Virus record (IMG/VR): IMGVR_UViG_3300046007_010355
Coordinates: 1 to 53,617 of that record
Strand: one strand, 5' to 3'
Source of the DNA: a virus
Lineage: Duplodnaviria; Caudoviricetes
Length of the DNA: 53,617 nt
The notes beneath the pieces are model-generated. The model made no database searches. It was not told the DNA's origin and saw only the letters and a list, made by a program, of their open reading frames with translations. The translations under genes were made by a program, and so were the position numbers. Each line of letters begins with the position of its first letter. The first letter of the stretch is position 1. Shown piece by piece: positions 41,572-49,698 of this stretch.

Positions 41572-42585
41572 TCTTTTAGCCTGTTTGGCAAGTTCAAAAC
41601 TTGCCAAATTTTTAGCTTTGGATTCACACATAATATCGTGGGTTTCTAAAAAGCTCAAAGCCCATTCATTCACTGCGGTGTTCCAGTAGAAATCACTATG
41701 GGCTCGCAGTTTCTGTTTTTTATGTCCTGACTCGATTAAGGTCTTAAAATCGGGAATCCGATCTCGGGGATGATCCACCAGGATATCCTCTCTAGAAATA
41801 CTATAATGCAAAGTAGGACGAACCCCGCGCCAACTATCCACCACTCTTTTAACACTGTCACTAGTTGGTTCAATGTATACCCCTTCACGGCACCAATTAT
41901 GATGTATGTCAAGCACAGTAGGTATAATATCAGCAAGGCTAAGACAATCATCCAATCCATAACTTATTTCCTCGTTTTCGACGGTAATGGTATTACGGGC
42001 TTCTGGACTGAGTCGCGAATAGGCTTGTCGGATACCGGCTGGACCGGCTCTACCCGCGATGTGGACGTTGATTTTAAAGTCTTGAAACGATTTGCCATAA
42101 TCCATCCAACGGGCCATATCTGCATGGTATTCAAACTCCTCTATACTACGTTCAACAATTTCAGGACTATCACTAGCAAGCACAGTGAACTGGCCAGGAT
42201 GAAAGCTAAGCCGAACACTACGATCCCGAGCCAGCCTTCCGACCTTGGCAAACGCTGATTCCGCATATCTCTGTACATCAGGAAGCTGCCAAAAGTAGCG
42301 CCAGCTAGGCTCAGTATAAACAGGAAGAATGTCGCTTGAAAGACGAACCATCCGAAGTCCATTATCCAAATCTCCTACTCGTTGAACCAACAGTCTTGTT
42401 GATTCGATATTTTGTTTCATTAAATCCCATAATTTTTGTTCTGCAACCTCTCGTGTTTGTCTGTTCAGCCAAGCAACAGTAGTTGAACCTGTATTGTATT
42501 TTTTACAGTCGTCTTTAGGTTTGATACCATCTACCTGATCTGGATGATCAATCCATTTACAAGCAAATCCAATTCTTTTACTCAT
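41557..42585 (-). CDS. uvsE: UV damage endonuclease (UvsE/UVDE)
   Basis: RIGFAC, RLSSD, RLSFHPGQF, INVH, ENEE, LDIHH, RAHSD, MCESK; likely start at 42585. Confidence 0.92.
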   Translation of the reverse strand: MSKRIGFACKWIDHPDQVDGIKPKDDCKKYNTGSTTVAWLNRQTREVAEQKLWDLMKQNIESTRLLVQRVGDLDNGLRMVRLSSDILPVYTEPSWRYFWQLPDVQRYAESAFAKVGRLARDRSVRLSFHPGQFTVLASDSPEIVERSIEEFEYHADMARWMDYGKSFQDFKINVHIAGRAGPAGIRQAYSRLSPEARNTITVENEEISYGLDDCLSLADIIPTVLDIHHNWCREGVYIEPTSDSVKRVVDSWRGVRPTLHYSISREDILVDHPRDRIPDFKTLIESGHKKQKLRAHSDFYWNTAVNEWALSFLETHDIMCESKAKNLASFELAKQAKRLGFV

Positions 42586-43048
42586 GTTGTTCTTTTGATA
42601 ATTTAGCAAGTAGAATAAAGTGATCGTATGCTTTTTTAACTGTCTCATTAGATAATAACAGGTCTGCTTCTTTTTGTAAAGCTTTCATAGCTTCCTCTGC
42701 AACTTCTCTAGCACTCGGCCATTCTAATTGTTTAGCATCATCGCCGAATTCCTTTATAAGATTATTCCAAGCAGCTAGTTGACCTTCTGTAAGTTGTTTT
42801 CCTCTATCTGACCTTGGCATACGCAGTTCTCCTTCTTTTACCAAAGCTGTTGCTAGTGCATCTTCGGCCACATGACTGGCAGCAATTAAGGCTACATAAT
42901 TTGGATCAACATTGAATTTTCGACTAGTTAACCCTGGCCGGCATATTACAACGTGTGTTCCTTTGGGATATGCGTCTATGAATTCGCTATCATACTCTTT
43001 AACCGGAACGTATCGTTTCCCACGTTTTTCATAAAAAGTTTTTTTCAT
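42578..43048 (-). CDS. Hypothetical protein
   Basis: 156-aa ORF. Confidence 0.8.
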   Translation of the reverse strand: MKKTFYEKRGKRYVPVKEYDSEFIDAYPKGTHVVICRPGLTSRKFNVDPNYVALIAASHVAEDALATALVKEGELRMPRSDRGKQLTEGQLAAWNNLIKEFGDDAKQLEWPSAREVAEEAMKALQKEADLLLSNETVKKAYDHFILLAKLSKEQHE

Positions 43049-46873: not shown

Positions 46874-47428
46874 TTATGCGAACAAATCTTCATTCCATTC
46901 GCGGTGACCTTCTCTAAAAGCCATATTGTTTTGAGTTTCTCTTACTTCTACGCGAAAGCACCAGAGTCGTTCAGCTTCTCCAGGTCCCCACATATCAGGA
47001 ATATACACTCCATTAACAAATTTGTAAAGCATATCGGCTAAACCTTCACATCCTAGTTTCGGTAGAATGGTTAGTTTAGCCATTTTCTTTTCTTGTAATA
47101 ATTTGAATGTTTCCAATTCTGGATCATCTTGTGCTACAAGTAAAGTATGATCAAATTGGTCTTCTAATATTTTTTTAAGTTCTTTTAGACCACCATAATC
47201 AGCAGCCCAATTTCGAATATCGAGATCATTAGTCCCGAAATAAAACTTCATTGAAAAACTATAACCGTGGATTAAATTACAGTGACTATCGGCACGCCAT
47301 TGACGATATGCACAGGGAAATGTGTCGTGATATTCTTTAGTACTGGTGAATTTATATGTAATTGGGCCACGATATGGAAAGTTTTGTTCCATATGACGTA
47401 TTAACTCTTGTGTGGATGTTTTTGCCAT
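46874..47428 (-). CDS. queD: 6-carboxytetrahydropterin synthase / 6-pyruvoyl-tetrahydropterin synthase
   Basis: HCNLIHGY, D.G.LK, FDHTLL, GCEGLA, VRET. Confidence 0.85.
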   Translation of the reverse strand: MAKTSTQELIRHMEQNFPYRGPITYKFTSTKEYHDTFPCAYRQWRADSHCNLIHGYSFSMKFYFGTNDLDIRNWAADYGGLKELKKILEDQFDHTLLVAQDDPELETFKLLQEKKMAKLTILPKLGCEGLADMLYKFVNGVYIPDMWGPGEAERLWCFRVEVRETQNNMAFREGHREWNEDLFA

Positions 47429-47510
47429 CTCTTGCCTCCTTGAGTAAGTTTGATGACAGCAGAATTTATAAAGCGGGGTGATGCCAAGACCGCTGTTAAA
47501 ATTATATTTA
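47429..47510 (-). ncRNA. Candidate preQ1-I-like riboswitch or structured leader of the queD-yhhQ operon
   Basis: TAAATA promoter, then AGCGG-UCUUGGCAUCACC-CCGCU-UUAUAAAUUC-UGCUG, then GGAGG RBS. Confidence 0.5.
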
Positions 47511-47511
47511 A

Positions 47512-47700
47512 TTATTTTTTTATGTCAACAGTTATTTTAGAAATATCTGATTTAAGTAATTCAAAATCAGATTTAATTTTTTGTATAATTTGAATTTCTC
47601 TTTTTCTTGTAATTATGATTTGAATAGCGGTATACAGAAATAATAACCAACCTAAAACAGCGCCTATAAAAATGATTGTTAACTCTAATTTAGTTGCCAT
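47512..47700 (-). CDS. Small membrane protein
   Basis: One TM; GGGAG RBS. Confidence 0.65.
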   Translation of the reverse strand: MATKLELTIIFIGAVLGWLLFLYTAIQIIITRKREIQIIQKIKSDFELLKSDISKITVDIKK

Positions 47701-48639: not shown

Positions 48640-49053
48640 TTATTTTTGATCAGTCAATCCGGCAATAATTTGAAAATTTTCCCAAGCTTTTTTAACAGCA
48701 GGATGGCTTTCCATATCTTCCTGTGAAGGTCCTACTTCTAGCCAATAATAGGGCAAACGACCAGGACGAGCACCAAATTGTCTAGGTTGATGTAATTTTC
48801 CCTGATTCCATAAATCAATACTGACCGAACGAACCCTCTCTTCATCCTGTGTAGAAAAATTGCTCCATTCTGGCATTGACCATGGACTTCCTGCGGTATA
48901 ACCGCCACCATAACCTTGCCAAATACCATCCCATTGTTTTTGATCTCTGGGATCAAAATCTGTTCGAGCAATTATGACAAGTACATCTTTGATATCTACT
49001 TTGCCTTCTACAATATCTCGAACACATCTGCTGAACGAAAGGCCTATTTTCAT
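48640..49053 (-). CDS. Hypothetical protein
   Basis: MKIGLSFSRCVRDIV...GKLHQPR; likely start at 49053. Confidence 0.8.
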   Translation of the reverse strand: MKIGLSFSRCVRDIVEGKVDIKDVLVIIARTDFDPRDQKQWDGIWQGYGGGYTAGSPWSMPEWSNFSTQDEERVRSVSIDLWNQGKLHQPRQFGARPGRLPYYWLEVGPSQEDMESHPAVKKAWENFQIIAGLTDQK

Positions 49054-49457
49054 GATTGTTCCTGTAACCATTCAATTCTAAAATCTTCGGGATCATCTAC
49101 TAACATATGTTCTTTTACTTCAGTCCACTTTCCATCTATTTTAATTTCTATTTTAACTTTTGTCAATTCTTCCTGAACCTTACGGTCAATTTCATCTAGT
49201 ATTCCGCAACGTTTCATAGCTTCAATTTTGCTCCATTTTTGGAATTTATCAGTTGAAGCCATTTTTACAAAAGCATCTCTTTTGTTGTCATGTTGACTAC
49301 GACTACTTTCACTGTATCCATGAGCACCACTTGCACGATGACTACAGTGTACAGCAGAACTAGTTTTGTTACGTTTTTGACCACCGGCACCTGTGCCTTT
49401 GGTGTAACTCCAATCACAGTCTTTGGCAGTGACCGAAAACAAAATATTATTAGTCAT
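49050..49457 (-). CDS. Class I release-factor-domain protein (GGQ peptidyl-tRNA hydrolase, ArfB-like)
   Basis: GTGAGGQKRNKTSSAV...SRSQHDNKRDAF; no codon-recognition domain. Confidence 0.8.
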   Translation of the reverse strand: MTNNILFSVTAKDCDWSYTKGTGAGGQKRNKTSSAVHCSHRASGAHGYSESSRSQHDNKRDAFVKMASTDKFQKWSKIEAMKRCGILDEIDRKVQEELTKVKIEIKIDGKWTEVKEHMLVDDPEDFRIEWLQEQS

Positions 49458-49698
49458 TTTTGTCTTGCTCATATTTTTTAATCATACGATATAGTGGTTC
49501 GAGATCTTTTGCAAAATGTTCCGGAATTTTCTCTGTTATTAACTCCAGGTGATAATCATCTGGCCAATGACGCAGTAATGATCTTGCTTGTTGTCTGATC
49601 GTTTTTGGCACTCTTGGGGTCATCATAGGACTTTGCAATCCTATAAGAAACTTTTTAGTTTGAATTAGACTACGATATCTTTCGTCTGCTAAGGTCAT
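49450..49698 (-). CDS. Hypothetical protein
   Basis: MTLADERYRSL...PRVP..IRQQARSLLRHWP. Confidence 0.75.
   Translation of the reverse strand: MTLADERYRSLIQTKKFLIGLQSPMMTPRVPKTIRQQARSLLRHWPDDYHLELITEKIPEHFAKDLEPLYRMIKKYEQDKND

Follow-up and report, generated by a model that had tools for sequence, protein, structure and literature searches.

A conserved pseudoknot in the leaders of phage QueD-like genes as a candidate ligand-responsive switch

The leader of a QueD/PTPS-like gene in the window is, from comparison with related loci, a conserved H-type pseudoknot that lies between a sigma-70-type promoter and the gene. The window is the whole stretch of DNA that was analyzed, 53,617 nucleotides, and corresponds to an entire virus record (IMG/VR IMGVR_UViG_3300046007_010355; Duplodnaviria; Caudoviricetes) with a completeness estimate of 15%. 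The motif has two covarying helices (P1 and P2) and conserved unpaired bases, is associated with QueD-like genes, occurs as a single copy per genome, and shares one strand of P2 with hairpins at the ribosome binding site (RBS). The reading preferred here, at a probability of roughly 0.55, is that the pseudoknot is a ligand-stabilized aptamer that competes with an anti-start hairpin and switches translation of the QueD-like protein on. A sequence-only reading of the same site had proposed a preQ1/preQ0-type riboswitch ahead of queD-yhhQ through which the phage would feedback-regulate the supply of a DNA modification precursor. Its observation was confirmed in part. Its interpretation, which is partly supported, was right in kind but erred over the P2 register, preQ1-I membership, feedback as the mode of control, and the tie to DNA modification.

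Architecture and covariation of the leader

The leader fills the gap between a 62-aa open reading frame (ORF) and the QueD-like gene (Table 1). Its promoter agrees with the sigma-70 consensus at 12 of 12 positions, ends 7 nt ahead of P1, and would place the transcript start at about 47494, the first base of P1. Sigma-70-like sites (at least 9 of 12 positions) ending 4 to 12 nt before P1 were found in 40 of 181 leaders, compared with 4 of 181 at a control offset, and TAA(A/G)TA occurred no more than 30 nt upstream of P1 in 136 of the 181, compared with 2 in a control region. This second element, often in the form ATAAATA 10 to 19 nt 5' of P1 (e.g., in L095, L112, L119, and L186), is one that we liken to a T4-type late promoter, and it may be a phage promoter that replaces the sigma-70 type of the window. 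Given promoter-like sites just upstream and upstream genes that vary from locus to locus, the queD mRNA appears to begin with the motif.

Table 1. Positions of the leader elements and adjoining features in the window, in order of transcription
Feature	Positions	Strand	Remarks
62-aa ORF	end at 47512	-	upstream neighbor of the leader
Sigma-70-type promoter	47501-47528	-	TTGACA 47528-47523, 16-nt spacer, TATAAT 47506-47501
Leader	47511-47429	-	83-nt gap between the 62-aa ORF and the QueD-like gene
P1 5' strand AGCGG	47490-47494	-	partner 47476-47472
L1 UCUU	47486-47489	-	from alignment A1
P2 5' strand GGCA-U-CA	47479-47485	-	U47481, invariant, mismatched with C47459
L2 CC	47477-47478	-	C47477 invariant, immediately 5' of the P1 3' strand
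P1 3' strand CCGCU	47472-47476	-	covariation, RNAalifold
L3 UUAUAAAUUC	47462-47471	-	family consensus nUAnAAAyUC
P2 3' strand UG-C-UGUC	47455-47461	-	C47459, invariant, mismatched with U47481
Anti-start arm UGUCAUC	47452-47458	-	shares 47458-47455 (4 nt) with the P2 3' strand
Shine-Dalgarno AAGGAGG	47435-47441	-	from sequence; placed by the fold in the loop of the anti-start hairpin
GAUGGCA, 3' arm of the hairpin	47423-47429	-	start codon and flanks; MFE fold
ATG of the QueD-like gene	47428-47426	-	from sequence
QueD/PTPS-like gene, 184 aa	46874-47428	-	Pfam PTPS 6.5e-15; phrog_2389
Terminator-like hairpin	46902-46878	-	9 pairs, then T-rich tail; overlaps the last queD codons
YhhQ/Vut_1-like transporter gene, 232 aa	46156-46854	-	Pfam Vut_1 1e-27

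P1 consists of 5 bp and closes the loop UCUUGGCAUCACC (47489-47477, minus strand), whereas P2 consists of 7 to 8 bp around an invariant U.C mismatch. The sequence-only reading had described the P1 stem, and its placement of the loop, of the linker that is now L3, and of UGCUG (47461-47457) is exact on the minus strand. In alignment A1, made up of 131 distinct copies, L1 ranges from 3 to about 10 nt; its first base is variable (U, C, or A) and its second is C in at least 90% of the copies. All 131 copies have C in the column immediately 5' of the P1 3' strand, preceded by U, C, or A. L3 is 10 nt long and A-rich, with A, A, A, U, and C invariant or nearly so in A1, and in most copies it reads TACAAA, not TATAAA. 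By analogy, L3 may make A-minor contacts with P1, and C47477, which occupies the position of the specificity cytosine of preQ1-I, might serve likewise in the leader RNA.

Folded by itself, the window leader has a minimum free energy (MFE) of -17.1 kcal/mol, and 33 of 200 shuffled sequences fold as well or better; with z = -0.83, it is the relatives and not the fold of the window that make the case for the stem. Across both helices in A1, 94.4% of the cells were paired (85.6% when shuffled), double changes occurred at 9 of 12 pairs, and the covariation score of 0.215, compared with 0.070 for shuffles, was reached by none of 500 shuffles. P1 was 100% paired in this set, for which complementarity was a filter, with double changes at three of its five pairs; its variants over all the sets include GCGG/CCGC, GAGG/CCUC, GUGG/CCAC, CCGG/CCGG, and UCGG/CCGA, and the first pair alternates between A-U and U-A. 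P2, which joins A1 columns 19 to 26 with columns 47 to 54, was 90.1% paired, with both sides changed at six of seven pairs, and pairing dropped to 30 to 46% when the partner was slid by 1 to 3 columns. The two inner pairs of P2 change from CA/UG to CG/CG and UA/UA, and the variants elsewhere include GACUU/AAGUC, AUGGCAU/AUGUCAU, GGCG/CGCC, GGUG/CACC, and GACGC/GUGUC. G.U pairs in A1 were confined to the queD-sense orientation.

The A1 copies had been extracted on condition that P1 be complementary, and GCGG/CCGC was fixed in the first pattern; a second pattern scan therefore placed no constraint on the P1 5' strand or on the central part of its 3' partner. It yielded 33 new loci, of which 32 carried the whole motif and one (L217) was a chance match, and it added the P1 type AUCGG/CCGAU. 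With the P1 5' strand free, a perfect 5-of-5 partner was present in 117 of 123 distinct matches, compared with 2.6% when the upstream bases were shuffled. Alignment A2, a set still derived in part from the GCGG-fixed scan, had 99.2% of its P1 cells paired and a covariation score of 0.258 (0.038 shuffled); it was used for P1 only, because it misplaces the P2 5' strand between length classes. RNAalifold predicted P1 unaided. Two copies, L216 and L235, combine AGCGG with CCGGU, leaving one G.G mismatch in P1; they may stand midway between GCGG/CCGC and CCGG/CCGG.

The existence of the pseudoknot stands, but not the register that the sequence-only reading gave it, UGGCA with UGCUG, which was paired in 62.3% of cells compared with 61.8% for shuffles; sliding it by 3 columns restores the covariation. 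The competing 7-bp pairing of ACAGCGG with CUGCUGU is present in the window and possible in other copies of the GCGG type, but copies with a changed P1 do not preserve it (85.5%, compared with 84.5% shuffled). The pairing of UCUUG with CAAGA exists in the window but is missing, on inspection of the leaders, from the commonest leader type.

Distribution and gene context

A search anchored on the QueD-like protein returned 590 confirmed relatives, of which 80 were kept. The same motif was found just 5' of the gene in 75 of these 80 loci; two of the others were cut by the contig end, one had the 3' half only, and two were without the motif. In the half copy (L002:1-150), the motif is retained from the P2 5' strand on and is fused to unrelated upstream sequence, which looks like a recombination break within the aptamer. 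A pattern scan for the motif gave at least 120 stretches, with the full feature set in all of those listed, and the total among IMG/VR phage contigs is at least about 200 copies. A covariance model (R1) built with P2 as the structure had a single match in the window (57.3 bits, E = 3e-12) and one strong match per genome in five jumbo phages (330 to 383 kb, completeness 95 to 100%). The first downstream ORF was QueD-like in 148 of 160 leaders; by a simpler test, the motif in L085, L137, L150, and L190 lies clearly ahead of another gene.

Outside phage contigs, a specific pattern gave two matches in representative prokaryote genomes (185,579 species), both in short contigs of metagenome-assembled genomes (MAGs), and apart from these two no bacterial counterpart was detected with that pattern. 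The two (L211 and L212) sit at the ends of Bacteroidota MAG contigs and are probably binned phage DNA; we take the strong Shine-Dalgarno (SD) sites of their leaders to speak against a Bacteroidota host. When the 2.2 kb surrounding the site were searched as DNA against GenBank phages, nothing matched. Cultured phages with QueD homologs all showed less than 60% identity (105 records), and three of them, ACP17, X1, and Phosso, had no R1 match at E <= 0.1; the single R1 match in X1 (E = 0.29) is 5 kb away from queD. No description of the motif was found in the literature, where supplementary motif lists, such as that of PMC5737381, might contain one.

The 184-aa protein encoded after the leader matches phrog_2389, "QueD-like 6-pyruvoyl-tetrahydropterin synthase" (6.2e-37), and falls below the NCBIfam QueD cutoff (33.1 bits versus 89.25). 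It is 43% identical to the QueD of Pseudomonas phage Iggy, which is encoded in a QueE-QueC-QueD-FolE-DpdA cluster, and it is of the type seen in bona fide phage 7-deazaguanine clusters. The QueD-like proteins found after the motif belong to three PTPS subfamilies, two with HGY and one (L149) with the canonical HGH. Among 143 distinct homologs, most of the motif-linked proteins have C-x3-H-G-Y where canonical QueD has H-G-H, and most carry Y, C, or F at the first zinc-histidine position, whereas L149 keeps the canonical histidines; we assume that these histidine positions of QueD are zinc ligands.

The 232-aa transporter encoded next in the window passes the queuosine precursor transporter model TIGR00697 (61.3 bits, cutoff 50.95). 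This match is in favor of the sequence-only reading, but a yhhQ-like gene follows within two ORFs of queD in only 9 of 160 leaders, which counts against it. Because a terminator-like hairpin separates the two genes and the transporter is a neighbor in those 9 leaders only, it is uncertain whether queD and yhhQ form an operon, that is, whether the transporter is under the control of the leader. Further downstream, the window encodes a DUF6552 protein, a D-amino-acid-dehydrogenase-like flavoprotein, and a UXS-like epimerase.

Other genes of the pathway accompany the motif. FolE was found in 109 of 233 loci and a divergent QueE-like radical-SAM gene in 105, and near-complete or complete relatives encoded FolE (four of four), the QueE-like protein (four of four), and Vut_1 (one of four). 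QueC and TGT were found in none of these four relatives, and a single-sequence search with the DpdA of Iggy, of limited sensitivity, gave nothing in five of five relatives; the link to a DNA modification precursor drawn in the sequence-only reading is not borne out by this gene content. The same picture holds across the five jumbo phages (G001 to G005, 330 to 383 kb), in which FolE, QueD-like, and QueE-like genes were detected and QueC, TGT, and Iggy-type DpdA were not. The QueE-like protein, represented by a 295-aa product of L012:1072-1959 (plus strand), is matched by QueE models at its N terminus only (42 bits, cutoff 206), has an unusual cysteine spacing (CNFTCAGFGC), and has its homologs in the 105 loci.

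The surroundings of queD form a shuffled island of auxiliary genes, including those for a methyltransferase, a B12-binding radical-SAM protein, a cupin, and a UXS-like epimerase, together with a GT2-like gene (under the Pfam cutoff) and a neighbor that is KdsA-like by eye only. In the window, a UvdE-like UV endonuclease gene (41575-42633, minus strand) is 54.7% identical to a gene that frequently follows queD in relatives. Elsewhere on the minus strand (48640-49472), a 140-aa RF-1-domain protein (Pfam 6.6e-13), a peptidyl-tRNA-hydrolase or ArfB-like fragment, is encoded with a 22-nt overlap with the next ORF.

Predicted switch, candidate ligands, and alternatives

The MFE fold of the window pairs UGUCAUC (47458-47452) with GAUGGCA (47429-47423) in a hairpin that covers the start codon and shares bases with P2. 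This anti-start hairpin has a predicted energy of -9.1 kcal/mol, compared with -3.8 for the core of the P2 duplex, and therefore the default state should be off. The same UGUCAUC...GAUGGCA design over the start codon was found in 49 of 181 leaders, the window included. The commonest type, class B, has CCUAUG...CAUAGG over the SD (103 of 181), and two further designs place GCCAUUG...CAAUGGC over the start codon (17 of 181) and UGUCU...AGACA over the SD (6 of 181), leaving 6 of the 181 outside all four.

Pairing of 3 or more nt of the P2 3' strand to the region from the SD to 6 nt past the AUG was seen in the MFE folds of 142 of 156 leaders. Of the 13 nt that begin with the P2 3' strand, 6 or more were paired in this way in 129 of 156 (0.83), compared with 0.39 for shuffled sequences, an approximately twofold enrichment counted over copies that are related to one another; in the same type of test (at least 6 nt), L3 was paired to this region in 21 of 156. 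When the P2 strands were blocked, the probability that the SD is unpaired rose from 0.43 to 0.72, AUG accessibility showed no rise (0.35 to 0.30 on average), and the accessibility of the SD or AUG fell by more than 0.2 in 66 of 156 leaders. The SD itself lies outside P2, 20 to 40 nt beyond it. These folds argue with moderate force that pseudoknot formation would free the ribosome site, making the motif an ON switch and not a feedback repressor. With the anti-RBS role falling to the P2 3' strand, the arrangement points to activation, in place of the feedback control of supply that had been proposed for the site. In class B, the overlap between P2 and the SD hairpin is only 2 nt, so both could coexist.

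Class-B leaders (e.g., L005:2925-3006) have a further peculiarity: the loop of the SD hairpin reads TAnnnT (TATAAT, TAAAAT, TACAAT, and others) in 97 of 103, and TTTACA or ATACAA of L3 stands 17 to 18 nt upstream of it, an arrangement that the leader type of the window is without. This arrangement could be an internal promoter, which would give a transcript without the aptamer.

A covarying aptamer in a predicted 5' untranslated region, followed by variable platforms that share a strand with it, is the general pattern of a riboswitch, and it is the pattern of these leaders. In the reading preferred here, the leader of the queD-like mRNA would fold into P1 and P2, with an A-rich L3 and the invariant C47477 at the P1/P2 junction, and the rival fold of the aptamer would pair UGUCAUC, which takes in the 3' part of the P2 3' strand, with GAUGGCA. 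When ligand is absent, the hairpin would prevail and translation would be off; bound ligand would stabilize the pseudoknot, which would capture the anti-start strand and expose the SD and AUG, turning translation on. We infer that the RNA binds a small molecule, that this is a guanine-like heterocycle of the FolE-QueD-QueE pathway, and that the switch runs in this direction. The invariant junction C suggests a ligand with a guanine-like Watson-Crick face, and the gene context points to the route from GTP through H2NTP, CPH4, and CDG to preQ0, so that candidate ligands would be the 7-deazaguanines preQ0, preQ1, and CDG or the pterins H2NTP and CPH4. If the motif is a riboswitch, 7-deazaguanines would, on a rough estimate, be the leading candidates at somewhat under even odds; pterins would be a lesser prospect, other guanine derivatives rather unlikely, and something else more unlikely still. 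Activation of a biosynthetic gene by an end product would be an unusual logic, and the first base of L1, with which preQ1-I reads its ligand, is not conserved; both count against this explanation. A substrate or an upstream signal would suit an ON switch better than an end product would.

A more specific version of the proposal is tentative, and we hold it to be somewhat more likely wrong than right: the motif would represent a new, phage-confined riboswitch class, with a preQ1-I-like fold remodeled by a long P2 and an invariant U.C step, that senses a guanine-like metabolite of the GTP-to-7-deazaguanine route (H2NTP, CPH4, CDG, or preQ0/preQ1) and turns QueD translation on, so that freshwater jumbo phages would time or gate FolE-QueD-QueE by the metabolic state of the host. 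Identification of a ligand would reveal the way in which a phage reads a host metabolite so as to control an auxiliary metabolic gene, would extend the sequence space of the preQ1-I fold, and would provide a handle on FolE-QueD-QueE modules in phages in which QueC, TGT, and DpdA were not detected. To our knowledge, new classes of riboswitch are seldom found, and almost all of them are bacterial. The present motif is abundant and strongly covarying, without an Rfam match or a detected bacterial counterpart, and it resembles preQ1-I with an apparently opposite direction of control. The few phage-borne riboswitches described in excerpts of PMC9004378 are copies of bacterial classes.

An unlikely but not negligible alternative is that the pseudoknot regulates in cis without any small molecule, as a binding site for a protein (a phage translational regulator or the QueD-like protein itself), as a ribosome-standby or enhancer element, or as a switch responding to temperature or Mg. 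In its favor, the structure and the gene association are observed whereas ligand binding is a prediction, and the confinement to phage contigs, bar the two short MAG contigs among 185,579 species, would fit a phage-encoded partner. It accounts poorly for the many unpaired positions that are invariant or nearly so (the C of L2; A, A, A, U, and C of L3; the U.C mismatch) and for a constant aptamer in front of differing expression platforms. Invariant unpaired bases and varied platforms behind a constant aptamer are the usual signature of a metabolite riboswitch. No conserved partner gene was noticed adjoining the motif except the QueD-like one.

It is improbable that the motif is, as the sequence-only reading had it, a divergent member of preQ1-I with preQ1 or preQ0 as its ligand and feedback repression of queD (and yhhQ) as its effect, although several observations lean that way. 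The leader has the H-type fold, the 5-bp P1, the U/A/C-C step before the P1 3' strand, and the A-rich L3 (features as given in available parts of PMC11625349); the genes controlled would be the QueD-like gene and, in the window, a transporter that passes a queuosine precursor model; and type III sets a precedent at yhhQ in gamma-proteobacteria (excerpts of PMC10622847). Against it, the SD lies well past P2 and the RBS finds its complement in the P2 3' strand, which predicts activation, and L1 has no conserved uridine. The Rfam scan that the sequence-only reading had suggested found no match to any of the three preQ1 models. At the gathering score, Rfam gave no match in the window or in 20 loci, and all-family scans at E <= 10 of 181 nt and 141 nt around two copies returned no preQ1 family, preQ1-II (RF01054) and preQ1-III (RF02680) included. 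RF00522 searched alone at E <= 10 gave no match at the motif in the window and four relatives, with the best match elsewhere at 17.1 bits or below (gathering score, 39), in a search whose cutoff was passed in 1 of 14 control genomes. That best match in a relative (17.1 bits; 211605-211638 of G001) lies inside a 339-aa ORF and was taken as chance.

Signals at the DNA level, namely, a promoter, a terminator (stem and U-rich tract) belonging to the gene upstream, or both, are a very improbable explanation: L3 is TATAAAT in the window, the form in which excerpts of PMC9004378 quote the T4-type late promoter consensus, and resembles the T4-type late promoter TATAAATA, and in class B an arrangement TTTACA-N17-TAnnnT overlaps L3 and the hairpin loop, with TAnnnT following CUAUGC in 97 of 103 leaders, but crossing-helix covariation and G.U pairs on one strand are inexplicable at the DNA level, no terminator was called at 47472-47494, where the loop measures 13 to 19 nt and pairs with bases further downstream, L3 shows the same conservation in types without the -10-like hexamer (the window included) and is TACAAA and not TATAAA in most copies, and the upstream genes differ from locus to locus.

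Comparison with known riboswitches

PreQ1-I is the smallest known aptamer, and the leader, as far as its sequence tells, would work like a preQ1-I-type pseudoknot aptamer that lacks three marks of the class: a sufficient RF00522 score, the conserved uridine or uridines of L1, and an SD within or abutting the P2 3' strand. Two marks are present, namely, an H-type pseudoknot whose P1 is short and whose L3 is rich in A, and the C before the P1 3' strand. In preQ1-I, available parts of PMC11625349 place a cytosine specificity base directly before the P1 3' strand, in a UC or AC step. The phage motif shares with preQ1-I (RF00522, types I to III) a 5-bp P1 with G-C pairs at the junction, a C (after U, A, or C) at that position, an association with queuosine pathway genes, and control of translation, which is predicted here. 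The claim of a preQ1-type riboswitch accordingly holds for a queuosine-gene leader pseudoknot with preQ1-I-like features and not for membership in preQ1-I.

The differences concern several parts of the fold. P2 has 7 to 8 bp with the invariant U.C mismatch, whereas preQ1-I has 3 to 4 bp. L1 of the phage motif has 3 to 10 nt and starts N-C, whereas that of preQ1-I starts U-U, and its first base, which in preQ1-I reads the ligand (U6; the UU motif in types I and III), is not conserved in the phage motif. The 10-nt L3 with its conserved UUC end is also unlike that of preQ1-I. In preQ1-I, the P2 3' strand holds or abuts the SD and the switch is OFF, whereas in the phage motif the SD is outside P2 and the switch is predicted to be ON. 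Unlike preQ1-I, the phage motif was found, among the matches listed, in phage contigs only.

Type III of preQ1-I controls yhhQ in gamma-proteobacteria, as excerpts of PMC10622847 describe. The likeness is that of a small pseudoknot before a 7-deazaguanine salvage gene, the yhhQ-like gene of the window being one gene further downstream; the differences are that the regulated gene here is QueD-like and that a transporter is a rare neighbor (9 of 160 leaders). In type III, according to the same excerpts (PMC10622847), the SD (AAGG) pairs inside P2 and touches the ligand, which is not so in the phage motif.

For a riboswitch carried by phages, the glutamine riboswitches of aquatic phages provide a precedent, described in portions of PMC9004378 as copies of the bacterial glnA motif. 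They thus have a bacterial class, whereas the queD-leader motif has no detected bacterial counterpart. For the predicted direction of control, the closest likeness is to the fluoride, ZTP, and guanidine-III riboswitches. Their consensus, ligands, and gene contexts are unrelated to those of the phage motif, and none of them matched in the Rfam scans; in all three, a ligand-stabilized pseudoknot pulls a strand from a repressive helix and so activates expression.
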